Assembly (NCBI GenBank): GCA_050013255.1 | Contig: JBEKFP010000003.1 | Coordinates: forward strand, 187,434-251,433 | Length of the DNA stretch: 64,000 nucleotides | Direction of reading: 5' to 3' | Source: Candidatus Bathyarchaeia archaeon | GTDB lineage: Archaea > Thermoproteota > Bathyarchaeia > 40CM-2-53-6 | Shown: positions 1,620-53,968 of the stretch, piece by piece | Layout of the letters: each line of letters starts with the position of its first letter | Numbering within the stretch: position 1 is the first letter of the stretch | Position numbers and translations under genes: made by a program | Notes under the pieces: model-generated | What the model saw: only the letters and a program-made list of their open reading frames with translations | Database searches by the model: none | Told to the model about the DNA's origin: nothing

Positions 1620-3662
1620 TCAAGCAGCTGTTCGCTTCAAGTGGCCAGGTTTGGGCGAGTAAAGTATTCCTTCCTTGACTAATTGATCGACCAGCCTTCT
1701 TGCGTCTTCGTCTGTTACGTCAACCTTCCGCGAAAGTGCCTGGTACAGCGTCGAGTCTTCGACGATTCCCAACTGCTTCTCCAAATCAGCGAAGGTGCTC
1801 AGGACCACCTGCATCTTATCTCTCAAGCTCTTTGGCTTGCCCGTCATTATGACATCAATGTCCATCTTCCCAGTAGTCGTGTCGATGCCCACATCCTGCA
1901 GTGATAGGGTCATCAGCCGAATTATACTGCGGGCGTCCTCAGCTTCAACACGGTCACGCAAAAAGCTCCTAGCCCTTGCTTCAGCCAACCTAACTAACGC
2001 TTCGAGCTGTCTAGGTGTTATGACAAGGGGTGATTCTGTTGAGCCCGACATTGAACGCATCTTAAGGTAATACTGCCTAATCTCATTTACAGCCTCTTCA
2101 GACAGGACTGGTTCGACGCGCTTGGCGTACGCAATATACTTGCGTAGGAGGTCCGGAAGGAGTGGTGGTTCCTCCGGAGTAGTCTTCAGCCTGTGAAGGG
2201 TTAGTATGTGTTCCGACATTCTTCTGTCCGAGTCGGGTTCTGGAACATCTTTCATAATGAAGAGTAGGTCGAAACGGGTCAGTAACGTTACGGGTAGGCT
2301 AATGTTATCCGTGATGTTCCGGTATGGGTCATATCTCCCCAAACTTGGGTTGGCAGCCGCGAGGACGGCGGCCCTGGCGTTCAGGGTTGCAACGATCCCT
2401 CCCTTGGCTACGCTGACCGTGTGCTGCTCAAGCACTTCGTGTATCGCCACTCGATCTTCTGGGCGCATCTTGTCGATTTCGTCGATGCAAGCGACCCCTT
2501 TATCGGCCAGAACCAGGGCGCCAGCTTCTAGCACCATTCCTCCCGATTTTTCGCGGACTACCGCGGCGGTTAAGCCTGCGGCTGTTGTGCCGCGGCCGCT
2601 TGTGTATAGCCCTCGGGGTGCGATTCTTGCAACGTATTGTAGCAACTGACTTTTCGCCACTCCCGGGTCTCCCACGAGGAGAACGTTGATCTCGCTTCGT
2701 ATCGATACACCATCAGGGAGTCGTTTGGGCACTCCCCCAAAGAGGAGGTACAGGACGGCCTCTTTGATATCCCCGTAACCGTAAATGGAAGGGGCTAATG
2801 AGGCGATTAGCTTACGGTGGATGAACGGGTCTTTTGCCAGTTCCCTTATCAGCCTCTCATCCTCAGGCGTTATTTCTACAACCGCAACTTCCTTCCCCAT
2901 GATGTCAACATAGTTAGCGTCGAGCAGAAGCTCGAATGTTCGGAGCCTCGCCTTTCGGCCAGCGAACTCTTGCTGCGCCCGCGCAATACCTATTATTGAT
3001 ACGCGGTCGCCAGGGCGGGCGATGTCGACTAGGTCCTCCGAAAGTTTGATGTCAACTGCCCTCGGTAGCTGGCCGGGGGGAAGGTCTTCAGGCCTCTCCT
3101 GAATGCGGATTTCCTGAGAGTTCATGAAGGTCGACATTTTCTCCATGAATTCAAAAATCTTCGAGCGACAATGGGCGCAGACTCCGGGCCCGCGCATCAA
3201 TGTTCCTGCCTGTTCGACATAGCTCATGGCGTTGCACTTACGGCATTGGAAGGCTGCTTTGAGGAGCAAAGGTTTGACGGATGTTGATCGGACGATTATG
3301 CCATCGATCGATAGCAACCGGCCAATGTTTTCCGAGCCGATCTTACGTAGGGAATGTTTCTCCGGCAGTTTTCTAAAGCGAACACGAAGACGTTTTATGA
3401 TCTCAGCGTATTCAGGGTCTTCGATCTTGAGTTGCGCCCAGGCGCTTCGGTCTAAGTATTCTAAGTACTCGTCGGGTTTATCGAGAATGGAGCGGGCGAG
3501 GTCTGCATCGTGGGCTATGAGGTCTTCAAAATCAACAATGATTGATCTAAAGCCGGAGAGGGCTACGTGGCCTAGGCGCTTTCTGTATTTGTACTCCTCG
3601 TCAGCCATGAAAGTCCTGAGGAAGTCTTGGAAACGTTCCTCGGGGTTTTCGAGTGTGGTCAA
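1620..3662 (-). CDS. mcm: MCM replicative helicase
   Basis: 680 aa. Zn finger CRKCN..CAHCRS, Walker A GDPGVAKS, Walker B ACIDEIDKM, arginine-finger region SRFDLLF, C-terminal winged helix. Confidence 0.95.
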   Translation of the reverse strand: MTTLENPEERFQDFLRTFMADEEYKYRKRLGHVALSGFRSIIVDFEDLIAHDADLARSILDKPDEYLEYLDRSAWAQLKIEDPEYAEIIKRLRVRFRKLPEKHSLRKIGSENIGRLLSIDGIIVRSTSVKPLLLKAAFQCRKCNAMSYVEQAGTLMRGPGVCAHCRSKIFEFMEKMSTFMNSQEIRIQERPEDLPPGQLPRAVDIKLSEDLVDIARPGDRVSIIGIARAQQEFAGRKARLRTFELLLDANYVDIMGKEVAVVEITPEDERLIRELAKDPFIHRKLIASLAPSIYGYGDIKEAVLYLLFGGVPKRLPDGVSIRSEINVLLVGDPGVAKSQLLQYVARIAPRGLYTSGRGTTAAGLTAAVVREKSGGMVLEAGALVLADKGVACIDEIDKMRPEDRVAIHEVLEQHTVSVAKGGIVATLNARAAVLAAANPSLGRYDPYRNITDNISLPVTLLTRFDLLFIMKDVPEPDSDRRMSEHILTLHRLKTTPEEPPLLPDLLRKYIAYAKRVEPVLSEEAVNEIRQYYLKMRSMSGSTESPLVITPRQLEALVRLAEARARSFLRDRVEAEDARSIIRLMTLSLQDVGIDTTTGKMDIDVIMTGKPKSLRDKMQVVLSTFADLEKQLGIVEDSTLYQALSRKVDVTDEDARRLVDQLVKEGILYSPKPGHLKRTAA

Positions 3663-8327: not shown

Positions 8328-9578
8328 TTACTTTCGCTGTACGCGTTTCTTCCGACTTGTGGTTAGTGCGGCCTCTAGTTGTTCGCGCATAGTTGTGGCT
8401 GGTATGTTTTGTAGGCCGAGTAGGGTTGTTTTGCCGCGTACGCCTTCGCCTGATTTTGAGGCTGTTATTACGCCAATGGCGCCTAGGCCGCGGGCGTACT
8501 TCCAGATCTGGGTATGCTTTCTGGGTTTGTCATCGTACTCTTCACAAACAGCCTTGTACTCGCGTTCAACAACGCCTATAGTAGCGTAGGCTTCCTGTGA
8601 TTCCCCTAGAACCCTTGCTAAGGCTAGCAGCATGTATTTTTCGTGGGATGATAGGGCGGCGATGTATTCGCCCCTGAGCATCGGGTAAACGCTTCCGGCA
8701 GCCTTCCGCACATGGTCGGTTAGAATGTGCTTTGCACTTTCAGAGTCAGCGTATTTTCCGGCGCGCCAGAGTAGTTCGATTGAGTACCTGGCGTCACCGC
8801 TCTGCCCTCCTATGTCGGCGACGAGTTGAAGCGCCTCGTCGGCCACAACGTTCTCTTTGAAAGCTAAACCAACGCGGTCTTTGAGAATGTCAATTAGTTG
8901 GCGGGAATTGTACTTGTCGAGTTTAACGATATTCCGTTGCAGGGTGTCGATGGTGCTCTTGTCGAGTTTTTGCAGGTATTCAATCTCGCGGAGTATGAAG
9001 ATGAGTGAGAGCCGTATCGGTTTGCCAACCCTTTCCTCTTGGATGCGGGTTAGGTTGTAGATGGGCGTGGATTCTTCCACTCTGATTAGGTGTTCAAGTT
9101 CGTCGAGTGCGAGTATGAGGTGTATGTTCTTGTCGTCGAGCATGTCCATGAGGGTGTGGAGAAGTTCCTCGGGCGCGAAACCCCGCTTCGGAAATTCAGG
9201 TTCGAACTGAGTTAGGACTCGTTTTAGAATCATGAAGAGGCTGCCTTTCGCTTCGCGGCAGTTCACGTGAACGTAGTGAAGGTTGACCTTGCGGTTTCTC
9301 GCAGCCTTAACAAGGTCTGTCCCGAAACGTTGGGCGAGTACCGTCTTGCCGGTTCCCACGTCGCCCGTGATCAGGACGCGTTGGCTTGTGGAGAAGGGGC
9401 TGTCGAGCGTGAAGCGGAAGAGTTGGGTGAGAAAACGCATTTGCTCGTCGCGGTGGGGAAGCTTACGGGGCATGTATTCCAATGAGAGGGGCGTTTCGTC
9501 TTTGAAGACTGTGGGCCTTTCCAAAGTCTCCTTAACAATATCTGAAGACAATTGAACGAGAGCCCCTACTCTCGACAT
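8328..9578 (-). CDS. cdc6: Orc1/Cdc6 replication initiator
   Basis: 416 aa. Walker A GDVGTGKT, Walker B LILALDELE, AAA+ lid and C-terminal winged-helix region. Confidence 0.9.
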   Translation of the reverse strand: MSRVGALVQLSSDIVKETLERPTVFKDETPLSLEYMPRKLPHRDEQMRFLTQLFRFTLDSPFSTSQRVLITGDVGTGKTVLAQRFGTDLVKAARNRKVNLHYVHVNCREAKGSLFMILKRVLTQFEPEFPKRGFAPEELLHTLMDMLDDKNIHLILALDELEHLIRVEESTPIYNLTRIQEERVGKPIRLSLIFILREIEYLQKLDKSTIDTLQRNIVKLDKYNSRQLIDILKDRVGLAFKENVVADEALQLVADIGGQSGDARYSIELLWRAGKYADSESAKHILTDHVRKAAGSVYPMLRGEYIAALSSHEKYMLLALARVLGESQEAYATIGVVEREYKAVCEEYDDKPRKHTQIWKYARGLGAIGVITASKSGEGVRGKTTLLGLQNIPATTMREQLEAALTTSRKKRVQRK

Positions 9579-34020: not shown

Positions 34021-34127
34021 GAGTGTGTGATACTAGTGGTGCGACCGTCGTAATTTGAACCGTCGTTCAGGTCGTCCTTGTGTGTGTGGTATCAGTGGTG
34101 CGAGCACCCAAATTTGAACCACCAGAC
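34021..34127 (+). repeat. Two tandem island repeat units (tRNA-3'-end mimic)
   Basis: GTGTGTGATACTAGTGGTGCGACCGTCGTAATTTGAACCGTCG and GTGTGTGTGGTATCAGTGGTGCGAGCACCCAAATTTGAACCACC. TGGTGCG is the reverse complement of CGCACCA, and AATTTGAACC is the reverse complement of the T-loop GGTTCAAATT. Confidence 0.8.
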
Positions 34128-34808: not shown

Positions 34809-34850
34809 AACGTCAACACGCCTACCGTAATGCGCTCGGGGCTACCTAAA

Positions 34851-35038
34851 TGTGTGTGTAGGTAGTGATGGTGCGGGCGCCGTAAATTGAACCGTCGTTC
34901 GTCGTCAAAAAAATGTGTGTGTGGGTCTTATGGTGCGAGCATCGCAAATTGAACCGTCGTCGTTCGTCCGTCAGGATGGAATAGTTAGAATGGCCTTCGT
35001 AAGAAGGAGTGCGGGTATGCTGGTGCGCGCACACACAC
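34851..35038 (+). repeat. Two more tandem repeat units plus a GGGTATGCTGGTGCGC/GCACACACAC junction
   Basis: TGTGTGTGTAGGTAGTGATGGTGCGGGCGCCGTAAATTGAACCGTCGTTCG; TGTGTGTGTGGGTCTTATGGTGCGAGCATCGCAAATTGAACCGTCGTCG; then GGGTATGCTGGTGCG (35013-35027) followed by CGCACACACAC. Confidence 0.8.
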
Positions 35039-38520: not shown

Positions 38521-38656
38521 TTTCGTGTATGATTTTGTAATTTCATGATTTTTTCTACGTGTGGTTGGTTGGTCGTGGTTGGTCATGGTAGTGGTTGTGG
38601 AGCGTAGCAAGGGCGAGCGTAGCGAGGAGGGTGGTTTAGTGGTGCGCACACACACA
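38521..38656 (+). repeat. Composite cassette-junction repeat (paralog of 36132-36241)
   Basis: CGTGTATGATTTTGTAATTTCATGATTTTTTCTACGTGTGG-(GGTTGG-rich; GCGAGCGTAGCGAG)-TAGTGGTGCGCACACACACAG. Confidence 0.75.
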
Positions 38657-38764
38657 GCAAAAAAATGACACACAATTACTAATCTGAGATAATCAATACA
38701 GCTATCAATTCTCAATATGCTTTCATTGATGCTCAGAAAGCAGGCTACAAGTAACACTGGTTTT

Positions 38765-39679
38765 CTATCGTTCGTCTGTCTTAATTCCCGGGAGTTGAAC
38801 AAGGACTACGCCCACAATGACTAAGAGTATTCCCAGAGTCATAACATAGGTGACGCGCTCATCGAGAAAGATCCATGCAAGCACAGCAACCTGCACGAGC
38901 ATACTGTTCTGAATTACTGACAGCTCGTACGCATGGATAGAGCGGAGGACGTGGTTCCAGAGAAGAAAGGCCAAGGCCGTATTGACAACGCCGAGCCACA
39001 ATATTATCAGCAGACCATTCAGAGAAATCGGCCTAAGCCCATCGAATACTGCCGCAAGCAGCACAAGGCCCGCTGTCCCAATTCCCATAGTCAACGTTGT
39101 CAGTTTCAATGACCCAAAGGAGTCAACCCTCTGAATTTTCCTGACTATTATCATGTAAATAGCCCATGAGAGACTCGAAACGATAACGGCTAGGATTCCG
39201 ATTTGCTGTCCCGCGCCCGCCAGTCTCTCCGAGAAGAACGCGTAAGCCCCCAGGAGAGCCACAGGCAAGCCCACCAATTGAAGGCGCGACACTTTTTCTC
39301 TGAGAAGCAGGACCCCCAGCACGAGAACGAAGACCGGCGTAAAGTTGAGCACGAAGGTAGACGTAACTGCTGGGAGATAGAACAAGCCGACGAACTGGAG
39401 ACCCTGAGCAAGAGTGTAGCCACATATCCCTGCCGCGACGAGGAGTACTTTCCCATTCGCCACAGTCGTGCTCTTTCGACCACTCTTCTCAGTCCCCACA
39501 CGTGCGACATACAACATTCCCAAAACGACGAACGCAAGCGTGTAGCGCTCAGCAGCGAAAAGAAAAAGAGGAATTTCAAGCAAACCAAACTTGATTAGAA
39601 CATACGACGATGACCACAAGAAAGTTACCAGAATCGCTTCAGCGTATGCTAGTAGTGGATTCGATTTCGTGAACGGCAC
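38765..39679 (-). CDS. EamA/DMT-family transporter (second copy in the window)
   Basis: 304 aa with 10 TM helices and duplicated EamA halves. Confidence 0.85.
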   Translation of the reverse strand: MPFTKSNPLLAYAEAILVTFLWSSSYVLIKFGLLEIPLFLFAAERYTLAFVVLGMLYVARVGTEKSGRKSTTVANGKVLLVAAGICGYTLAQGLQFVGLFYLPAVTSTFVLNFTPVFVLVLGVLLLREKVSRLQLVGLPVALLGAYAFFSERLAGAGQQIGILAVIVSSLSWAIYMIIVRKIQRVDSFGSLKLTTLTMGIGTAGLVLLAAVFDGLRPISLNGLLIILWLGVVNTALAFLLWNHVLRSIHAYELSVIQNSMLVQVAVLAWIFLDERVTYVMTLGILLVIVGVVLVQLPGIKTDER

Positions 39680-39784
39680 CGCCAGTCACACACTATCATA
39701 ATTAATCTTTCATCTTGCTGCATACTATTCAGTTGCTTCTCACGTTCGTTCAAGCCCCCACAAGGTGCACTGATAACTTATGGA

Positions 39785-39813
39785 GTTGTGTGTGTGACTG
39801 CGCTGGTGCGCAC
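39785..39813 (+). repeat. Island repeat (solo end-like unit)
   Basis: GTTGTGTGTGTGACTGCGCTGGTGCGCAC, followed by the 7-bp inverted repeat GAGTCCA..TGGACTC and an ATATATATTTA box upstream of the methyltransferase gene. Confidence 0.7.
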
Positions 39814-39876
39814 ATATGAGTCCAGTCCTCGTGGACTCAATATATATTTACAGAAGAGACTCAACTCTGTGATGCT

Positions 39877-40593
39877 ATGAAGACTAACATAATCGCATAC
39901 TACAGGAAACATGATCCCTTCTCTAGATATCTAACAACCGACAAGCGAAGGGTGAAACAGATTTATGGGCTTTACACTTCAAACAAACGCCACTTTGGAC
40001 GCAGAGTCTTAGATATTGCGTGTGGAGGCGGAGTCTTAGGCTTCATAGTGGAGAGAGAGGGTCGCTCATACACTGGCGTTGACGTTAATCCTGACATGAT
40101 TTCGTCGGCCAGAACTCATGCAAAGGAGGTCGGGTCAAGAAACCGGTTCATCGAAGGAGATGTAACCCAAATGAAAATCGAAGGAAAATTTGACACCATA
40201 TGCATTCTGGGCAATGCATTATGTCACTTCTCAACGCACGATTTCTCAAGGATCCTTCAGAACACTGCCGCATGTAGCGAAAGAGGCGCTTACTTCATAG
40301 TAGATTATCGAGATATGGTGCGCCTAATGTTTCACAAAAAGTGGAATATCAAGAAAAGGCTTGTACAGAAAGAACGGGGAAGAATCAGCACGACAGAGGG
40401 TTGTGACACAAGAACCGGGTTCGTTCTAGTAACGACTACAGACCTGCGTGGAAAGAGCGAAGTCGGATTCGCTCATGCCATATGGTCGCCATTCATTATC
40501 ACACCCATCATGAATAATCATGGCTGGTCCATGGTAAAGAGAACATTCTCGAAGAGATTGTCTGAATGGCTCGATATCTACCGAAGAACCTAG
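39877..40593 (+). CDS. Class-I SAM-dependent methyltransferase
   Basis: 238 aa with motif I VLDIACGGGVLG and GVDVNPDM. Confidence 0.8.
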   Translation: MKTNIIAYYRKHDPFSRYLTTDKRRVKQIYGLYTSNKRHFGRRVLDIACGGGVLGFIVEREGRSYTGVDVNPDMISSARTHAKEVGSRNRFIEGDVTQMKIEGKFDTICILGNALCHFSTHDFSRILQNTAACSERGAYFIVDYRDMVRLMFHKKWNIKKRLVQKERGRISTTEGCDTRTGFVLVTTTDLRGKSEVGFAHAIWSPFIITPIMNNHGWSMVKRTFSKRLSEWLDIYRRT

Positions 40594-40622
40594 TTGCCAA
40601 AAACGATGAACCGATATTTCTC

Positions 40623-40835
40623 GTGTGTGTGGGTATGCTGGTGCGCCGCCCCCGCCGCCGCCTAGATTAACTTTGTGGTTGGAACGACGGTAGGAACCGA
40701 ACGACGACGGTAGGATTGGAGACGACGGAACGAGTACGACGACGCTAATACGAACGACGGTAGGAACGACGACGACACGCCGATGTTCTATGTTTTATAG
40801 GAATTGAAACACGTGGAAGCAACAGCACAGCTAAA
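40623..40835 (+). repeat. Left terminal inverted repeat (modular)
   Basis: GTGTGTGTGGGTATGCTGGTGCGCCGCCCCCGCCGCCGCC, then a spacer, then three copies of GAACGACGGTAGGA(A) (40682-40780), then AT-rich GATGTTCTATGTTTTATAGGAAT. Confidence 0.75.
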
Positions 40836-42633: not shown

Positions 42634-42954
42634 CTAACTGAGTTTCCTACGTGGATGCGATAAACGATATTTCCTGTCGCTCTCACGTCTTTCCGCACGA
42701 TGTGCTTCCCGATATTTTCTATCACTCTCTCGTCTTTCGGCACGGTGTGCTTCTCTATATTTCCTATCACTCTCACGTCCTTCTTTACGGCGCGCTTTTC
42801 GGTACTTCTCGTCCCTCTCATGTATTTCCGTGCGGTGTCCGTCCCGATATTTTCTATGTTCCTCAAGTCTTTCCGCACGGTGCGTTTCTCTATATCTCCT
42901 ATCGTTTTCTCTTGCCTTTTCAGGATGAAGAGACCGCCAACTTCTCCTTTTCAT
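42634..42954 (-). CDS. Highly charged protein made of 15-aa tandem repeats (RKYREAHRAERRESD-like)
   Basis: It starts 13 nt after the HNH stop on the same strand and is encoded by the 45-bp DNA repeats. The repeat (H/N)PEKARE..RRYRE resembles repeats seen N-terminal to some HNH proteins. Because of the repeats all frames are open, so frame choice is by context only. Confidence 0.4.
   Translation of the reverse strand: MKRRSWRSLHPEKARENDRRYRETHRAERLEEHRKYRDGHRTEIHERDEKYRKARRKEGRESDRKYREAHRAERRESDRKYREAHRAERRESDRKYRLSHPRRKLS
42650..42935. repeat. Tandem repeat, 45-bp period, about 6 copies
   Basis: The anchor motif CGATAT/CTATAT recurs at 42665, 42710, 42755, (42800), 42845 and 42890, exactly 45 nt apart. 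Confidence 0.85.
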
Positions 42955-42966
42955 CTAATGCCACGT

Positions 42967-43464
42967 TCAGTGTTTTTCCTCGTGTTTCCAAGTTCTATAC
43001 TTCAATATGGAAATAATCGCACCTCGGCTGACGCCGTATTCTTTGGCGAGGGTCCCAAAGCCGACTCCAGCTTTATGGTCTCTCGCATATCTCGCCCGAA
43101 TTTCGACAACTTGATTCCGAGTTAGCTTATGTGCGGGCGAGTCTTCTCCTCTGAGACCTCTGGAACGGCCCTTTCTCGCCCTGTCTTCGGCGTTCTCCTT
43201 GAGTGTTCCGACAGACAAGTGCGCCGGATTTACGCAAGCACGGTTATCGCAATGATGCAAAACACACTTTCCTTCGGGTATGCGTCCATATTCGAATTCC
43301 CAAGCAACTCGGTGAGCCATAGGCGTATGTCCGCGGTAATGGAATCGGCCATATCCATCTTGGTTCTTGACACCCATCCAAATCCAACAACCATTATCCT
43401 CTTTGCGGACTTTTTCCCAAAAGCGCTCCTTGACAGATGATACCCTCCTTGGCATGATTCTCAC
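42967..43464 (-). CDS. HNH endonuclease with a C-terminal HTH-like domain
   Basis: 165 aa. GCWIW.G..N.DGYGRF...G....AHRVAWEF..G.IP.G..VLHHCDN..CVNP.HL is an HNH_3-type pattern. Confidence 0.85.
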   Translation of the reverse strand: MRIMPRRVSSVKERFWEKVRKEDNGCWIWMGVKNQDGYGRFHYRGHTPMAHRVAWEFEYGRIPEGKCVLHHCDNRACVNPAHLSVGTLKENAEDRARKGRSRGLRGEDSPAHKLTRNQVVEIRARYARDHKAGVGFGTLAKEYGVSRGAIISILKYRTWKHEEKH

Positions 43465-43745: not shown

Positions 43746-44960
43746 ATGAACCCGTTACATCTCGGCGGTTTCGGCGTCGAAATTCAAGCAAGCAACCCAA
43801 AGCCACACGCCGAACTCATGATTACGAATGGACGGCGAAGCGAAAGCCTACCAGAACGCTACCTCTTTCTGCCAAGAAAAATAGTATACGATTCAATCAT
43901 ACTCGAAAACTGTACTGGACATGTTTCACTTTCAGCCTTACGCTGGTTGAGCAAACACAACATTCCAATCTTCTTCTTAAACTTCGACGGCTCAACCATC
44001 AGCAGCATTCTACCACCAACACCAGTTAAAGCGGATTTACGTGCCGCACAATTTCAAGCCGCCAACGACCCTGAAAAGAAGTTCAGAATCGCCCACGCGC
44101 TGGTAGAAGCGAAGATCGCTAGGAGCATACAGGTTCTAGACTGGTTAGCTCAGCGTTACGACATACAAAGAGAAGTACAAGTCACAAACGGCGAAGCTGT
44201 CAAGCTAGGCGAAGCCTCCACGGTCAATCAACTACGCACCGTTGAGGGCAGAACGGCGCTTCGATATTGGGAAGCATTCCGCAAAACTCTGCCTGAATCT
44301 CTACATTTCGAGGGACGCATGACCACAAGCCACAACAACAACGCCTCCGACCCATTCAACGCGGCGCTGAACTATGGCTATGGATACCTGAAAATTATGT
44401 GCAGAACGGCGATTAACTCTGTGGGACTAGAGCCCGCCGTAGGCTTCCTGCATGAACTCAGCTCCACTCAAACAGCAGAAAGCCTAGTCTATGACTTGGA
44501 GGAACCATTCAGATGGCTCATAGACCTCTGTGTGATTCAAGCGTTCGAAACCGGCAGCCTAGGCTTGGCAGACTTCGCTTTCACCAAAGACAATTACGAA
44601 TATCGAATTGAGTGGGAAGGTAAGACACGGCTCCGTCAATTGCTGACGGAGACATTCAATTCAAGAGTAAGGTATGGCGGGCAAGTGTTGAAGTGGGACA
44701 CCGTAATCGAACAGAAAACCTTGGAACTCAGCCGATACTTGACGGGAAAGGCGCCCACGTTGGACTTCAATGAACCCGCACCGACGTTAGAAAGACAGGA
44801 TAACCGAGAAGTCAGAGAAAACATTCTGGCCCTAACACAGTCTGAGGCTAGGCAACGTGGGATTGGGAAGAGTACGCTTCACTATCTACACAAGAACGCA
44901 CATGAGCGCAGTTCTTTTAGACTCTATGAGCCTGTAAGACGAAAGCTGTTGGGCGGTTAA
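43746..44960 (+). CDS. cas1: Cas1-family integrase, solo (casposase-like, with a C-terminal HTH-like extension)
   Basis: 404 aa. Cas1 hallmarks TVEGRTALRYWEAF (Glu), NAALNYGYGYL, VGFLHEL (His) and LVYDLEEPFRWLID (acidic). The extra tail is ...LTQSEARQRGIGKSTLHYLHKN. GAGGT lies upstream of the ATG. No cas2 or CRISPR is nearby. Confidence 0.85.
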   Translation: MNPLHLGGFGVEIQASNPKPHAELMITNGRRSESLPERYLFLPRKIVYDSIILENCTGHVSLSALRWLSKHNIPIFFLNFDGSTISSILPPTPVKADLRAAQFQAANDPEKKFRIAHALVEAKIARSIQVLDWLAQRYDIQREVQVTNGEAVKLGEASTVNQLRTVEGRTALRYWEAFRKTLPESLHFEGRMTTSHNNNASDPFNAALNYGYGYLKIMCRTAINSVGLEPAVGFLHELSSTQTAESLVYDLEEPFRWLIDLCVIQAFETGSLGLADFAFTKDNYEYRIEWEGKTRLRQLLTETFNSRVRYGGQVLKWDTVIEQKTLELSRYLTGKAPTLDFNEPAPTLERQDNREVRENILALTQSEARQRGIGKSTLHYLHKNAHERSSFRLYEPVRRKLLGG

Positions 44961-44961
44961 T

Positions 44962-45726
44962 TTGAAAGAAGTTTTCCTAAGCCACGCGCACGAAGACAAG
45001 GCACTAGCCGGAAAAGTAAAAGAGATTCTCGAAGCGAACGGGGTAAGTGCGTTCTTGGCTCATATGGACATGGAAGTCTCGGAAGAGTGGAGAACTGAAA
45101 TATCCCGACACCTTGAGACAAGTTCAGCCCTAATCGCTATCGTGACGTCGAATTTCGGCAAATCAGCCTGGGCAAACCAAGAAGTTGGAATAGCCTTCGA
45201 GAAGAAATTACCGCTAATTCCGTTGATGTTCGACGGAAGCGCGGTTCTGAAGGGTGTGATCGAAATGTATCAGGGAATCCTTGTTTCCGAAAATAATCTA
45301 GTAGATGTGGTAAAGAGCACTATTCCGACAATAAACAAGGGAATCCCTTCAACCGAGAGAAAATTCTACGATGCCCTAGCAGGCATCCTAAATCGTTTGA
45401 TACTAAGGTGGCAGACTTACAAGAGCCACCTATCAAACATAAAATGGACTCAAGAAGCTATTGAAGAGATTAAGAAGAATCTTCGCAGCGATAGAGAGGA
45501 ACTTCTCAATTTGGTCTCCAATGCGCCAGAAATCGATTTCGGCGTCAAAAATCAGACCACAGTTATCATGAGTCAAATTGACGTATTCGCACTCTTCAAA
45601 ATCAATTTCAACAAGCCCTATGCTGAGACTTACGGCGAATTCCAAGAATTAGAGCATAAAGGAGAACAGGTATCTTACACTGCTCAAGCCTTACGCGGTT
45701 GGTTGCAAACCGAGAAACTCTCCTAG
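44962..45726 (+). CDS. TIR-domain protein with an uncharacterised C-terminal domain
   Basis: 254 aa. A TTG start lies 1 nt after the cas1 stop. The N-terminus VFLSHAHEDKALAGKVKEILEANGVSAFL...IVTSNFGKSAWANQEVG matches the TIR pattern (FLSH..D ... S.W...E). Confidence 0.7.
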   Translation: MKEVFLSHAHEDKALAGKVKEILEANGVSAFLAHMDMEVSEEWRTEISRHLETSSALIAIVTSNFGKSAWANQEVGIAFEKKLPLIPLMFDGSAVLKGVIEMYQGILVSENNLVDVVKSTIPTINKGIPSTERKFYDALAGILNRLILRWQTYKSHLSNIKWTQEAIEEIKKNLRSDREELLNLVSNAPEIDFGVKNQTTVIMSQIDVFALFKINFNKPYAETYGEFQELEHKGEQVSYTAQALRGWLQTEKLS

Positions 45727-45928
45727 CTAGAATGACTCTGAAGTCGTTTCTCACTTTCGACACGCGCGATTCTTGTCTCAGTGGAGGCGTGGTATAGCTG
45801 ATGCGCCAACAACCTTTCAGGATTTACTCGAACGTGAAAGAGAAAATGAGTAATCCGCCCCTTGGGCAGCTGTGATTGAATCGTATACTATACATAAGCC
45901 TAGGCTAGTCTAACGTTTAGCAGAAATG

Positions 45929-46435
45929 TCATAATGCAACCTTCTTCTTCGGCTTACTATGCGGTTTGTATGGCGGTGGGGCTCCAGCATTTCGGCGAGC
46001 TTTTCGCATGTTCCACTGTCTGAATCTTCTCTTTCGGGCCTGAATGATCTTGTTCCTAAACTCGTTACTGTACCAACGTAACAACAGATCAGAGGGCGGC
46101 GCTTCTTCACCGTAAGGCTTTGCGCTTAGTTCATGGGCGGCGGCTATTTTCGCATAAATTTCTTCATCAAGAGGAAAATATGCGTAGTGCACTCCACCAT
46201 GATACATGATTTTCAACTGCCGACTAGAGAGGTTGTACGTTAAATCGAAATGCGGGGTTTGCGACAGTCTACTGAGCGTAACGCAATCTCTATTTTTCTT
46301 TCTTCTCTTGTCCAACCCTAGTGTTTCGACTTCTCCCGCAATCTTGAAAATTGGTTTACCTGTTTCGTTGTCTAATTCAATTTTCACTTGCTGTTTGCGT
46401 GAACCTTTGAGGCCGGTAGCCCTGATGTAACCCAT
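45929..46435 (-). CDS. Hypothetical basic protein
   Basis: 168-aa ORF with a Lys/Arg-rich C-terminus. No recognisable motif. Confidence 0.4.
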   Translation of the reverse strand: MGYIRATGLKGSRKQQVKIELDNETGKPIFKIAGEVETLGLDKRRKKNRDCVTLSRLSQTPHFDLTYNLSSRQLKIMYHGGVHYAYFPLDEEIYAKIAAAHELSAKPYGEEAPPSDLLLRWYSNEFRNKIIQARKRRFRQWNMRKARRNAGAPPPYKPHSKPKKKVAL

Positions 46436-46964
46436 GGACTACGCTCTCTTGCACTTCTTGAGTCTGAACTCGAAAGTGTACTTCGACGGGTTCCTGTCGA
46501 TTTTCTTGGCTATGATCTCGGGAACTAGAGTACGGAATTCAATGAGACGGCTTTCACGGCATGTCAGCGTTGACGTCTCCGCTTGCTGAAGAAGAAGAAC
46601 AGCCGTGTTACAACTGAAGAAGAAGAAGAATTATGGCGAAATGAAGAAGAAACTTCTGTATTCAACTCTAATCGCCTTTTCCTCTTATTTGCGGAGCTCT
46701 TTACCTGAAAGAAGCTCGAAATAACCTTAGTTTTGAACTGTATAAAAAGTCTACTGTCCCGCAGTCAGACGACAATACAACACTCGGTGATCGCAAACCT
46801 GAGGAAGCAGACCGAGAATAGTCTTGACCCAGCTCCCTCAGGGGAAATGGCGATTCCAGGTCTATTATTGTCTGCGAGTGGTAAATAAATCTACTTATTT
46901 TTGAGTAATAGGTTCGGTGCCACCCCTTCTTGAGCACGTATTAAGGGGAGCGATTTACCCAAAA

Positions 46965-49540: not shown

Positions 49541-49711
49541 ATGTGGTCCTTCATGTTTTATGATTCATAAGAAATCAGGTTCTTATCCTACTCCTGCCGT
49601 TCCTACTCCTACCGTACCGAACAGGTTCCTGCCGTCATTCCTACCCTTCGTGTTGTCACAATCCTAATATTAGCGGCGGCGGGGGCGGCGCACCAACGAT
49701 ACCACACACAC
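49541..49711 (-). repeat. Right terminal inverted repeat (modular)
   Basis: Read inward from 49711 on the minus strand: GTGTGTGTGGTATCGTTGGTGCGCCGCCCCCGCCGCCGC, then a spacer, then ACGG(C/T)AGGA-type short repeats, then the AT-rich near-palindrome (plus strand TCATGTTTTATGATTCATAAGAAATCAGG at 49551-49579). Confidence 0.75.
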
Positions 49712-49778: not shown

Positions 49779-51242
49779 CTATGTTGCTAGGCCACACTGC
49801 TTCCTGAGTTTCTCCATTAGTTCTCGGTATCGAGGGTCGGCCCTTGCCTTCGCGCAGAGAGGTGAGTACATCACGAACAGGGAAATTATCGCATGCTCTT
49901 CAAGGGCCTTGTTCACGTACTGGAAGTATGAGTCGAGGTCTCCGAGCGCGTGGTAGACAAACCCCATGTAGTTGAAGCCTATTGGACCCACCTTGGCATT
50001 CTCAATCTTCTTGATTGCGAGGAGTGCCGTATCTCTGTCGCCTTCCATGGCCGCGACGACCCCTCCCATCCAAGCGACCCTAGAATTGGTGGGATCGAGC
50101 TTCTCAAACTTCGCAAGGAGCTCCTTAGCCTTCTCAAGTTCCCCTTTGGCTAGGTAGTACTCCGTCATTCCCCTGTAGGTCCACGCAGGGGCAATCTGCT
50201 CGTACTTCTTCCAGTGCTCCAACGCCTCCTGCTCCCTCCCCGTATAGAGATACGCTAGCCCCACAAGCCAGGTGAACCGCGGCCTCACGGGGTCTAGGCG
50301 GTATGCTGTCTCGATCTGCCTAACCATCTCCCCCTGGTTTCCCTTGATTCCCTCCACCTCAAACAGTATCCAGTAGGCGTCTGGGAGACTCGGGTTAAGC
50401 TCCAAAGCCTTCCTCGCCTCCGCCTCCGAACCTAAGACATCGTCCTCATCGAAGAGCAAAACAGAAAGCACCGCGTGGGCCTCCGCAAGGTTCGAGTCGA
50501 GATTAAGGGCACGTTCCAATAATTGCCTCGCAGTCGAATGAGAGACATCAAACGGTTCCTTTCCGACGTTGGAAAGATAACTGTGGCACTCTGCCGCGCC
50601 GACGTATGCCCTCGCGAACTTGGGATCCAGTTCGATGGCTTTCTCAAAGAGGCTGATAGCCCGCTCTGTTGTATCTATGCTTACTTCCCGTAGTAGTTCT
50701 CTGCCTTGCAAGAAGTACGTGTACGCCTCAGTGTTCTCGGTAGGCTTCTTCTGTAGGGTTCGCTTCTCAGAGTCGAGTAGCTGGGTCTTGAGCTCTCCCG
50801 CCACCTTCTCAGCTATCTCACTCTGAACGGCGAAGATATCGTCTAAGTTCTTGTCATAGTGGGAGGACCACACGTGTTCTTCCGTTCCCGCGTTGATTAG
50901 CTGAACCGTGACCCTGACCCGGTTACCTGCCTTCCTTACACTGCCTTCGACCACCGACCCGACGCTGAGTTCCTTTGCGATTTCGGAGACATTCTTCTCC
51001 TTCTTCTTGTAATTCATCACTGACGTCCGAGCTATGACCTTCAAACTCTTCACCTGAGAAAGCCTGTCAATCAACTCCTCCGTCATGCCGTCCGCGAAGT
51101 ACTCGTCGTTAGGGTCGGGGCTCATGTTCTTCATGGGCAAAACGGCAATCCGGAGCTTGTCTAGCGTCTGCTGTGCCGTGGAGAACGCGGGGGGAATGAA
51201 GCTCTTCGACCGGGCGAGGTCGGCTGGCTGCAAATGATTCAC
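49779..51242 (-). CDS. TPR-repeat protein with a TolB-N-like N-terminal domain
   Basis: 487 aa. The N-terminal IAVLPMKNMSPDPNDEYFADGMTEELIDRLSQ pattern is followed by multiple TPR units. Confidence 0.75.
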   Translation of the reverse strand: MNHLQPADLARSKSFIPPAFSTAQQTLDKLRIAVLPMKNMSPDPNDEYFADGMTEELIDRLSQVKSLKVIARTSVMNYKKKEKNVSEIAKELSVGSVVEGSVRKAGNRVRVTVQLINAGTEEHVWSSHYDKNLDDIFAVQSEIAEKVAGELKTQLLDSEKRTLQKKPTENTEAYTYFLQGRELLREVSIDTTERAISLFEKAIELDPKFARAYVGAAECHSYLSNVGKEPFDVSHSTARQLLERALNLDSNLAEAHAVLSVLLFDEDDVLGSEAEARKALELNPSLPDAYWILFEVEGIKGNQGEMVRQIETAYRLDPVRPRFTWLVGLAYLYTGREQEALEHWKKYEQIAPAWTYRGMTEYYLAKGELEKAKELLAKFEKLDPTNSRVAWMGGVVAAMEGDRDTALLAIKKIENAKVGPIGFNYMGFVYHALGDLDSYFQYVNKALEEHAIISLFVMYSPLCAKARADPRYRELMEKLRKQCGLAT

Positions 51243-51467: not shown

Positions 51468-51646
51468 GCGTCATGTTTTATGATTCATAGAACATCAGGC
51501 TACCGCCACTAAGAGAATGTTGTGCGAGCGAAGCGAGCACCAAGCTAACCAAGTAAGCGAGCGAAGTGATCTTCAACAGGTTCCAACTTCGGGCGGCGGC
51601 GGCGGGGGCGGGTATGCTGGTGCGGGCGAGCGGATTTGAACTCTCG
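51468..51646. repeat. Second copy of right-end-type modules fused to a tRNA-3'-end-like unit
   Basis: TCATGTTTTATGATTCATAGAACATCAGG (51471-51499; the first 19 nt are identical to 49551-49569); GCGAGCGAAGCGAG-type module; GGCGGCGGCGGCGGGGGCGG; then GGGTATGCTGGTGCG (51610-51624) and GGCGAGCGGATTTGAAC. Confidence 0.7.
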
Positions 51647-51659
51647 TTTGGGGGAGAGC

Positions 51660-51680
51660 TTGGTGCGGCCGCCGGGATTC
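51660..51680 (-). repeat. Duplicate of the 3' end of tRNA-Gly (att-like direct repeat)
   Basis: TTGGTGCGGCCGCCGGGATTC is identical to 53873-53893, the 3' acceptor/T-arm of the intact tRNA on the minus strand. Confidence 0.85.
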
Positions 51681-53702: not shown

Positions 53703-53873
53703 CTGAGAAAGCAGGCGTACTAGCGCCAGTTTTCTCGGCACCCAACCTTTTCTTGGCTGTAGCAATTCTTGGCTAGCAATATTGTAGCCGCCTTCAAGCT
53801 GTGGATTTGCCTCAACTGGTTTTGTCCCCAATATTCGCATTGATGAAGCGATAAGGTATCGTTGCAGAGAGTT

Positions 53874-53968
53874 TGGTGCGGCCGCCGGGATTCGGACCCG
53901 GGTCGTTGGCTTGGAAGGCCAATGGACGCGTAAACGCAATGTCCTAGACCAGGCTAGACTACGGCCGC
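53874..53968 (-). tRNA. tRNA-Gly (anticodon UCC) with a 17-nt non-canonical intron between the D-arm and anticodon stem; CCA encoded
   Basis: Reverse complement: GCGGCCG-TA-GTCT-AGCCTGGTCTA-GGAC-A-[TTGCGTTTACGCGTCCA]-TTGGC-CTTCCAA-GCCAA-CGAC-CCGGG-TCCGAAT-CCCGG-CGGCCGC-A-CCA. All four stems pair once the bracketed 17 nt are removed. Confidence 0.85.

Follow-up and report, generated by a model that had tools for sequence, protein, structure and literature searches.

The DNA considered here is a 64,000-nucleotide stretch of archaeal contig JBEKFP010000003.1 (Candidatus Bathyarchaeia), which we call the window. At its center of interest is a gene for a Cas1 protein that is followed, on the same strand, by a gene for a protein with a TIR domain. 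An earlier note on this DNA, made from the letters alone, had the cas1 stop codon ending at 44960 and a 254-amino-acid open reading frame (ORF) starting one nucleotide (nt) later, at TTG 44962. Both positions are exact according to the ORFs and the sequence. The parts of the gene pair are as follows.

43746-44960, plus strand: cas1, encoding a predicted casposase-type Cas1 of 404 amino acids with a C-terminal helix-turn-helix; stop codon TAA at 44958-44960.
44951-44964, plus strand: cas1/TIR junction, with a Shine-Dalgarno-like GGGCGGT (44951-44957) within the cas1 tail, then TAA, a 1-nt spacer and TTG.
44962-45726, plus strand: gene for the TIR-domain protein, 254 amino acids; TTG start at 44962-44964, preceded by a single T at 44961.
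Residues 4 to about 120 of the 254-residue protein, plus strand: TIR domain, with the codon of the putative catalytic Glu74 at 45181-45183.
45331-45723, plus strand: C-terminal four-helix-bundle domain of the TIR protein, residues 124-254; AlphaFold2 predicted local distance difference test (pLDDT) score of 92.6 when modeled alone.

The TTG at 44962 is supported as the start by the N-terminus that it gives (M/L-K-E-A/V-F-L-S), which is kept across the TIR homologues. A GGCGAT motif is also kept 5' of the TIR start, even in copies of the gene that have no cas1. The predicted RNA fold of the junction (44900-45010) was not significant (z = 0.8). From this geometry, translation of the TIR gene may be coupled to that of cas1.

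Identification of the first ORF as cas1 was correct, with matches to Pfam Cas_Cas1 (E = 1e-52) and TIGR00287 (E = 1e-52). Its best match in the Protein Data Bank (PDB) is the family-2 casposase of Methanosarcina mazei (6OPM, E = 8e-77, residues 4-395), over a span that takes in the C-terminal helix-turn-helix, which CRISPR Cas1 proteins lack; structures of CRISPR Cas1 match at E = 2e-22 or worse. Residues E167, H236 and E253 align with the published M. mazei active site, E162/H232/E247 (PMC6977970), and this triad is invariant in 21 Cas1 homologues. Because the 6OPM match includes the helix-turn-helix region and the active-site residues both align and are invariant, we assign the protein, on the basis of sequence, as a casposase resembling those of family 2. 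A CRISPR adaptation module, that is cas1 with cas2 beside a CRISPR array, was not found in the 64 kb: cas2, Cas4 and other cas genes besides cas1 are absent from the window and neighboring ORFs scanned, and the window contains neither a CRISPR-like tandem array nor an Rfam CRISPR repeat. Homologues of this Cas1 are numerous (more than 120 protein clusters at at least 58% identity). The named ones come from metagenome-assembled genomes of Bathyarchaeia, and the hosts of the related loci are probably Bathyarchaeia.

The gene pair is part of a larger unit. G+C content dips over 35-49.5 kb of the window, and the ends and associated genes of the unit are listed below.

40633-40662: left end, a copy of the target-site duplication GTATGCTGGTGCG at 40633-40645 followed by the left terminal inverted repeat CCGCCCCCGCCGCCGCC at 40646-40662.
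42967-43464, minus strand: HNH endonuclease gene (Pfam HNH_3, E = 2.4e-15), divergent from cas1.
49657-49688: inner copy of the right end, an alternative boundary that gives a 9.0-kb element; followed by the inverted target CGCACCAACGATAC and the CACACACAC end.
51595-51624: outer right end, the right terminal inverted repeat GGCGGCGGCGGGGGCGG at 51595-51611 followed by a copy of the target-site duplication GTATGCTGGTGCG at 51612-51624 and then by a tRNA-like T-arm remnant.
53874-53968, minus strand: intron-containing tRNA gene (ARAGORN; Rfam tRNA, 48 bits) with the 3' end CGCACCA.

The 17-nt terminal repeats at 40646-40662 and 51595-51611 are perfectly complementary. They are bordered at both ends by a direct repeat of 13-15 base pairs (bp), GTATGCTGGTGCG, the reverse complement of which begins CGCA, as at the tRNA 3' end. 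The inner copy pairs with the left end over a longer stretch than the outer one does: 55 nt (49657-49711 with 40623-40677) at 80% complementarity. The element is predicted to extend from 40646 to either 49688 or 51611, about 9-11 kb; to judge by its second right-end copy, insertions here were nested or rearranged.

For comparison, 80 metagenome loci and one locus from a metagenome-assembled genome were fetched (Cas1 identity 56-76%), and 86 cas1 loci were analyzed; individual loci are given L numbers. Element termini in sequence are CCGCCCCCGCC... and CACACAC..., and the GC-rich left end also lies upstream of cas1 in L013, L015, L064 and L096. Locus L096, with a Cas1 75% identical to that of the window, has the same left and right ends, the right end being 94% identical, and its target copies at the two ends are inverted and non-identical.

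The heptamer TGGTGCG/CGCACCA occurs 17 times in the window, and 13 of these copies lie between 34.0 and 53.9 kb, ending at the tRNA gene. The composite GTGTGTG-N5-12-TGGTGCG was found 12 times in the window against an expectation of 0, and in 63 of 93 related loci; what follows it is either CACACAC or a tRNA-like T-arm remnant. Read on the tRNA strand, a junction runs from the right end GTGTGTG through 14 bp that begin with CGCACCA to the next left end, CACACAC. The 3' end of the tRNA (CGCACCA) is the anchor of this insertion array. The element of L006 (163-10208, 10.0 kb) has CACACAC/GTGTGTG termini and a perfect 14-bp duplication, GTACCATTGGTGCG, and its Cas1-TIR pair lies 82 nt from the right end. 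This element also carries Mrr_N, HEPN, DndB-like and BglII-like genes ahead of Cas1 and TIR, and amounts to a defense island on a casposon-like transposon.

Two other readings of the heptamers were rejected. They are not attachment sites of a tyrosine-integrase island, since there is no integrase and the (TG)n/(CA)n flanks and the spacing fit 14-bp duplications. Nor is TGGTGCG a part of the inverted repeat instead of the duplication, since the outer ends in the window and the ends in L006 show clean direct duplications. The inverted flanks seen in L096 and at the inner right end of the window are best explained, if not proven, as rearrangement in arrays that contain both orientations.

According to the literature, all casposons characterized so far have Cas1 together with a family B DNA polymerase (PolB), and PolB defines casposons as self-synthesizing (PMC9966878). 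Pfam scans of the element ORFs, and of large ORFs elsewhere in the window, gave no match to PolB. It is likewise absent from the gene tables of L001-L012 and L094-L097, and a scan for PolB motifs (YxDTDS, DxxSLYP) gave a match in only 1 of the 93 related loci scanned. The element thus has a predicted casposase with its catalytic residues, terminal repeats, a target-site duplication and a tRNA target, and it has no PolB; because of the latter we call it casposon-like, not a member of the casposons as currently defined.

The TIR-like pattern that the earlier note saw in the first 100 or so residues of the second protein corresponds to Pfam TIR_2 (residues 4-93, E = 3e-19, above the curated cut-off). 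The models TIR and ThsB_TIR match as well, and the same stretch matches the PADLOC models ThsB and PDC-S66. An AlphaFold2 model of the protein made with 18 homologues (pLDDT 82.7) has an N-terminal flavodoxin-like domain. In a Foldseek search, the model matched the TIR domains of SARM1, RRS1 (RRS1/RPS4), PdTIR and AbTir, with target-normalized TM-scores of 0.64-0.73, and also SPARTA. A glutamate in a W...E context is present in the motif S68-x-W70-x-N72-Q73-E74, which is invariant across 19 TIR homologues of 43-88% identity. We take E74 to be the catalytic residue by analogy with the W/CxxE motif of plant and SARM1 TIR domains, and not from a structural superposition. With this fold and conserved glutamate, the protein is predicted to be a TIR-domain effector, and its TIR domain may cleave NAD+ or make a signal by means of Glu74.

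The C-terminal part, which the earlier note put at about 150 residues of unknown domain, is a four-helix bundle of about 130 residues in the model. It has no Pfam match, and Foldseek with this domain alone returned generic helical bundles, none of them a significant PDB match (best E = 0.085). A HEPN toxin was considered and rejected on account of weak matches and the lack of a conserved Rx4-6H motif in the family. The domain is very rare, with 8 representatives in 1.84 billion proteins. In two of its carriers, P0143 and P0144 (54-56% identity), it is fused to a cytidine/dCMP deaminase domain and not to TIR, and a homologue of the deaminase also occurs in the Cas1 locus L023 (6868-7656). One C-terminal module on two nucleotide-directed enzymatic domains fits the regulatory or assembly module of a single-protein defense effector; the four-helix domain is probably a regulatory, sensor or oligomerization module.

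The TIR family is small (22 proteins in 5.8 billion clusters), and its members are not followed by a conserved partner gene; the ORFs behind TIR in L001 and L008 are unrelated. None of the ORFs from 34 to 55 kb of the window encodes a ThsA-like protein (SIR2, Macro, SLOG), SAVED or CARF. The window TIR protein is not part of Thoeris, there being no ThsA, and it is not a CRISPR accessory TIR protein of the TIR-SAVED or Cat1 kind, there being no CARF or SAVED domain and no type III cas genes. From what its ORF and neighbors encode, it looks like a self-contained effector.

The position that the TIR gene occupies behind cas1 is filled in most related loci, and by different genes. A same-strand ORF of at least 140 amino acids follows cas1 in 62 of the 86 loci. 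In 57 of these 62 it begins no more than 75 nt past the cas1 stop, often overlapping the stop by 4 nt. In about half of the other cas1 loci the contig breaks off within about 0.6 kb of cas1. The 62 proteins form 38 clusters without detectable similarity to one another. The Pfam domains found among them are TIR_2 in three architectures (the 254-amino-acid type, a 695-amino-acid TIG-TIR protein and a 519-amino-acid protein), AIPR, DarT fused to Macro, KAP NTPase, DUF4365 (two clusters), D12 methyltransferase, a DpnII/MboI-like nuclease and an AAA_16-TPR (STAND-TPR) protein. The PADLOC families are PifA (E = 2e-107), AbiU (E = 1e-43), DarT and DarG, ThsB, PDC-S66, PDC-S20, a QatA-like protein and type II methyltransferases. 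In about 20 loci the end of the element lies 8-150 nt past this gene, so that an element typically ends with cas1 and then the variable gene. The position 3' of cas1 can be described as a putative cargo slot, variable in content and holding many defense genes (TIR, PifA/KAP, AbiU, AIPR, DarTG, restriction-modification).

Exchange of the slot can be followed among the closest relatives of the window Cas1, none of which carries a TIR gene. In L094/95 (Cas1 80% identical) and L096 (75%) cas1 is not directly followed by a gene on the same strand, and L013 (76%) has an unrelated ORF of 284 amino acids there. DNA homology to L094 is lost after 44849, 110 nt short of the cas1 stop, and is regained at 46892; from this gap we conclude that a block of about 2 kb was exchanged.

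44850-46891: block of about 2 kb that differs from L094, comprising the cas1 3' tail, the TIR gene and the ORF 45929-46435.

The exchange likely took place by recombination at two conserved stretches, the 3' region of cas1 and sequence further to the right. This route accounts for the swapping of cargo, but not for the initial arrival of so many unrelated genes at the cas1 stop.

Survey of the cas1 neighborhoods also bears on whether the pairing with TIR is a single event. It is not, because in five other, divergent lineages cas1 is also followed directly by a gene of this TIR family. Co-occurrence, which the earlier note had left to such a survey, is therefore recurrent; a conserved two-gene system was not seen, and what the lineages share instead is a cargo slot. 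The TIR gene uses a TTG start in all six lineages that have cas1 directly upstream.

Window: reference TIR protein; 1-nt spacer after cas1.
L098: TIR 83% identical to that of the window; 1-nt spacer.
L006/7: TIR 65% identical; TTGA overlap.
L001/2: TIR 58% identical; TTGA overlap, with cas1 interrupted.
L078: TIR 40% identical; 4-nt spacer.
L097: 65% identical in the TIR domain only, with a different C-terminus; TTGA overlap.

Cas1 proteins paired with TIR share only 54-63% identity with the window Cas1 and fall in at least four separate places in a neighbor-joining tree of 81 Cas1 sequences, in which the other cargo families are scattered likewise. Five further TIR lineages have no cas1 (L003-5, L100, L008, L011/12 and L099) and retain about 12-30 nt of the cas1 3' end (...AAGCTCnGGCGATTGAA) before the TIR start; L009/10 is the only TIR lineage without such a remnant. 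In L003 and L100 the remnant stands directly behind a CACACAC left end, and the TIR gene alone makes up a mini-element of about 1 kb. Because cas1 is upstream in six lineages and cas1-tail remnants are present in five, the TIR family is predicted to descend from a cas1-linked ancestor, with cas1 lost repeatedly by internal deletion and the TIR gene left intact.

A 19-nt perfect inverted repeat has one arm at 43881-43899, in cas1 codons 46-52, and the other at 45873-45891, 147 nt past the TIR stop. The chance expectation for such a repeat is about 1e-3 in 22 kb, and none of the 100 related loci has it. We rejected the remnant of a second, inverted cas1 as its source, as only a core of 19-20 nt matches.

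From these observations we consider it fairly likely that the locus encodes the Cas1 transposase of a family-2-like casposon lacking PolB, together with a TIR gene that sits in its cargo slot, is co-expressed with cas1 and acts as an independent effector of the abortive-infection type. Cas1 would be the transposase of an element that inserted at a tRNA-type target. The slot 3' of cas1, usually the last gene before the right end, would hold a different gene in almost every lineage, mostly genes of anti-virus or abortive-infection type. The TIR gene would be transcribed together with cas1 and translated at a low level from its weak TTG by termination and reinitiation, helped by the Shine-Dalgarno-like GGGCGGT/GGCGAT in the cas1 tail. 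The C-terminal four-helix bundle would control the TIR domain, by sensing infection or by oligomerization, and the TIR protein would shield the host, and hence the element, from viruses. Cargo would be swapped when elements recombine at two conserved places, the 3' region of cas1 and the element ends, a step that is in part documented, and internal deletions would leave TIR-only cassettes. The first of two readings offered in the earlier note, that the TIR gene is defense or addiction cargo next to the integrase of an element, agrees well with the location of the casposase in an element delimited by terminal inverted repeats and target-site duplications, with the hypervariable slot and its many defense families, and with the closest Cas1 relatives having no TIR gene.

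Several points weigh against this interpretation. The arginine pair with which the M. mazei enzyme reads CGCA (R191/R192) aligns with H196/N197 in the window Cas1 and is not kept. The right boundary is ambiguous, 49688 or 51611, there being two end copies, the inner of which is followed by an inverted target. None of the loci fetched offered an empty site, which would have proved mobility. The Cas1 tree carries no support values. Of the slot representatives scanned, 17 of 30 have no recognizable Pfam domain. The spacing behind cas1 is tight for 38 unrelated genes, often with overlap, which is tidier than random capture and could reflect a functional tie to Cas1. Finally, we infer co-translation, NADase activity and the defense role of the TIR protein from sequence.

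The question then is whether the TIR protein works with Cas1 or without it. In the second reading of the earlier note, Cas1 senses DNA ends and is coupled to the TIR effector; put more generally, Cas1 would be the conserved sensor or processor of foreign DNA ends in a two-gene system, and the variable downstream gene an interchangeable effector. A conserved gene with a hypervariable, coupled partner is the layout of several defense systems, and in CBASS, retrons and Avs a conserved sensor is paired with swappable effectors. The TTG/TTGA overlaps with the cas1 stop are kept across divergent lineages, and three different TIR architectures have been recruited to the same position. We nevertheless regard such a system as unlikely. 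A transposase role of Cas1 is evident from the terminal inverted repeats, the target-site duplications and the tandem arrays at tRNA-like targets, and intact TIR genes occur where there is no Cas1 (L003, L008, L009, L011, L099, L100) and, in L001/2, where cas1 is interrupted. Among the slot genes are also systems that work by themselves, namely a Dam-type methyltransferase and a DarT-Macro fusion, both known to act alone, while the nearest Cas1 relatives (80% and 75%) have no same-strand gene right after cas1. The C-terminal domain, moreover, is shared with deaminases. That Cas1 itself triggers the downstream effector is improbable in our view, and the second reading is not supported.

A cargo gene could also serve the element more directly, as an addiction or stabilization module in which a TIR toxin, kept at low expression by its coupling to cas1, penalizes loss or silencing of the element. 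The weak TTG and the reinitiation geometry would keep the TIR dose low, other slot genes are of toxin type (DarT-Macro, AbiU, AIPR), and toxin-antitoxin genes are common on mobile elements (PMC12548467). We think this improbable, for no antitoxin-like partner is conserved beside the TIR gene, a chromosomal transposon does not segregate from its host as a plasmid does, and a C-terminal domain common to deaminase proteins fits a regulated defense effector better than an addiction toxin. Very unlikely is a decaying remnant, an immobile element whose gene adjacency was left by rearrangement in a hotspot and neither gene of which is now functional: the region is mosaic (two right-end copies, solo ends, partial tRNA copies), PolB is missing and some related cas1 copies are interrupted, but neither ORF is disrupted, the catalytic residues of Cas1 and the TIR motif do not vary among homologues 52-88% identical, the Cas1 family is large, as its more than 120 clusters show, and the target-site duplications in the window and in L006 are perfect.

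Starting again from a PolB-less, casposon-like element with a defense gene in its slot, a wider picture can be drawn, which we put forward tentatively, as possible but on balance the less probable outcome. Bathyarchaeial casposons without PolB would form a large class, not described before, that constitutes a Cas1-driven gene-cassette system, in which a slot coupled in translation to the casposase is refilled with defense genes by recombination, non-autonomous single-gene mini-casposons of about 1 kb are mobilized in trans, and integron-like tandem arrays build up at tRNA-like targets that the system itself propagates. Each of these mini-casposons may carry a single gene, such as TIR, a transporter or a methyltransferase.

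Further observations were made on the window and the related loci. Just left of the element are two single-gene units, an EamA transporter (38647-39796) and an S-adenosylmethionine (SAM) methyltransferase (39811-40632), each with CACAC...GTGTG ends; they are parted by N6-7+TGGTGCG spacers, like miniature casposons in tandem. Among 62 end-bounded segments in related loci, 21 are 0.7-1.5 kb long and 23 are over 6 kb. Repeat pairs of about 60 nt at 34023-34125 and 34848-34968, each with a GTGTGTG end, TGGTGCG and a tRNA-like T-arm remnant (AATTTGAACC), flank a MarC gene and probably represent solo ends whose target sites were regenerated. A 27-nt copy (96% identical) of the tRNA 3' end, at 51654-51680 and 53867-53893, brackets a 2.2-kb segment with an ArsR-like helix-turn-helix gene, two SRPBCC/AHSA1 genes and no integrase, which looks like a separate small insertion. 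Between the left end and cas1, the ORF 42634-42954 (minus strand) consists mostly of 5.3 in-frame copies of a 45-nt repeat (protein motif RKYREAHRAERRESD) and has a homologue in the L096 element. The TPR-repeat gene at 49779-51242 (minus strand) has homologues (37-81% identity) within a few kb of cas1, on either side, in six other loci; it could be cargo that recurs, or a cassette of its own. Elsewhere the window has the content of an ordinary archaeal chromosome, with MCM, Cdc6/Orc1, transporters and metabolic enzymes. The MCM and Cdc6/Orc1 genes (1620-3662 and 8328-9578) lie within 7 kb, with an RFC-like AAA ATPase between them, and a chromosomal replication origin may lie nearby.

The machinery of CRISPR adaptation is presumed to descend from casposons. 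To our knowledge, fewer than a hundred casposons have been described, and PolB has been taken as universal among them. A large PolB-less family with the hallmarks of family 2 would change the definition of casposons and the views on their replication and movement. A fixed slot behind the transposase would offer a practical way to find new archaeal defense genes, the 17 of 30 scanned slot families without a known domain being candidates. The combination of TIR with a rare C-terminal module that is also found on cytidine deaminases suggests a new family of single-protein, nucleotide-targeting defense in archaea. For the biology of Cas1, the adjacency of Cas1 and TIR does not imply a new signaling function. 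In the literature, subscription journals not covered, we found no description of a PolB-less casposon family of Bathyarchaeia or of a Cas1-TIR unit. Four things appear to be new, none of them described in the papers covered: how large the PolB-less family is, the fixed slot coupled to cas1, the family of TIR cargo genes and the single-gene mini-cassettes.

Among known systems, the closest are the family 2 casposons, such as MetMaz-C1 of Methanosarcina mazei and AciBoo-C1 of Aciduliprofundum boonei, which like the window element have a Cas1 with a C-terminal helix-turn-helix, an HNH gene beside cas1 and terminal inverted repeats. HNH genes occur in family-2 casposons (PMC4046053, PMC4779613), as do a 14-bp target-site duplication beginning 5'-CGCA at the tRNA 3' end, tandem elements with a single shared copy of it, and solo ends (PMC4779613, PMC6977970). 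The duplication (about 14 bp, 5'-CGCA, tRNA 3' end), the single-copy tandem arrays and the solo ends are also found with the window element. Casposons occasionally carry genes for a KAP ATPase, a methyltransferase or a restriction enzyme (PMC4046053). Unlike family 2 casposons, the window element lacks PolB, and it has a fixed, coupled slot after cas1 and single-gene mini-cassettes with the same ends. Its ends are (CA)n or GC-rich, its Cas1 has H196/N197 where the M. mazei enzyme has R191/R192, and the hosts are probably Bathyarchaeia.

The proposed hot-spring 'family 5' casposases mostly lack PolB and are reported to have no helix-turn-helix and to branch near the Cas1 of subtype I-A (PMC9755687). 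Family 5 shares with the window a solo Cas1 with intact catalytic residues, the absence of PolB in most members and diverse hypothetical neighbors. The window Cas1, however, has a helix-turn-helix and is closest to family 2, and is set apart from family 5 by description. On the side of the TIR protein, ThsB, PDC-S66 and the TIR-domain effectors of retrons and SPARTA have the same fold and the conserved glutamate in SxWxxxE. The window protein differs from these bacterial defense proteins in having no ThsA, Argonaute, SAVED or CARF, in its unmatched C-terminal domain and in its archaeal host.

A conserved mobility gene beside rapidly exchanged defense genes is a known theme (PMC11551731). In P4-like satellites, Tn7-like cargo regions and pipolins, as is likely for the window element, cargo is exchanged by recombination between conserved flanks. 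Here, in contrast to those hotspots, the cargo is usually one gene, a few nt from the stop of the transposase gene, and the mobility enzyme is a Cas1 homologue. Cassette arrays of integrons provide a last parallel, offered as an analogy only, also for the mobilization of cassettes: Cas1 is not a tyrosine recombinase, and inverted (CA)n/(TG)n ends with duplications of about 14 bp take the place of attC, while common to both are single-gene units, short conserved recombination sites and a position near an integrase-type gene.

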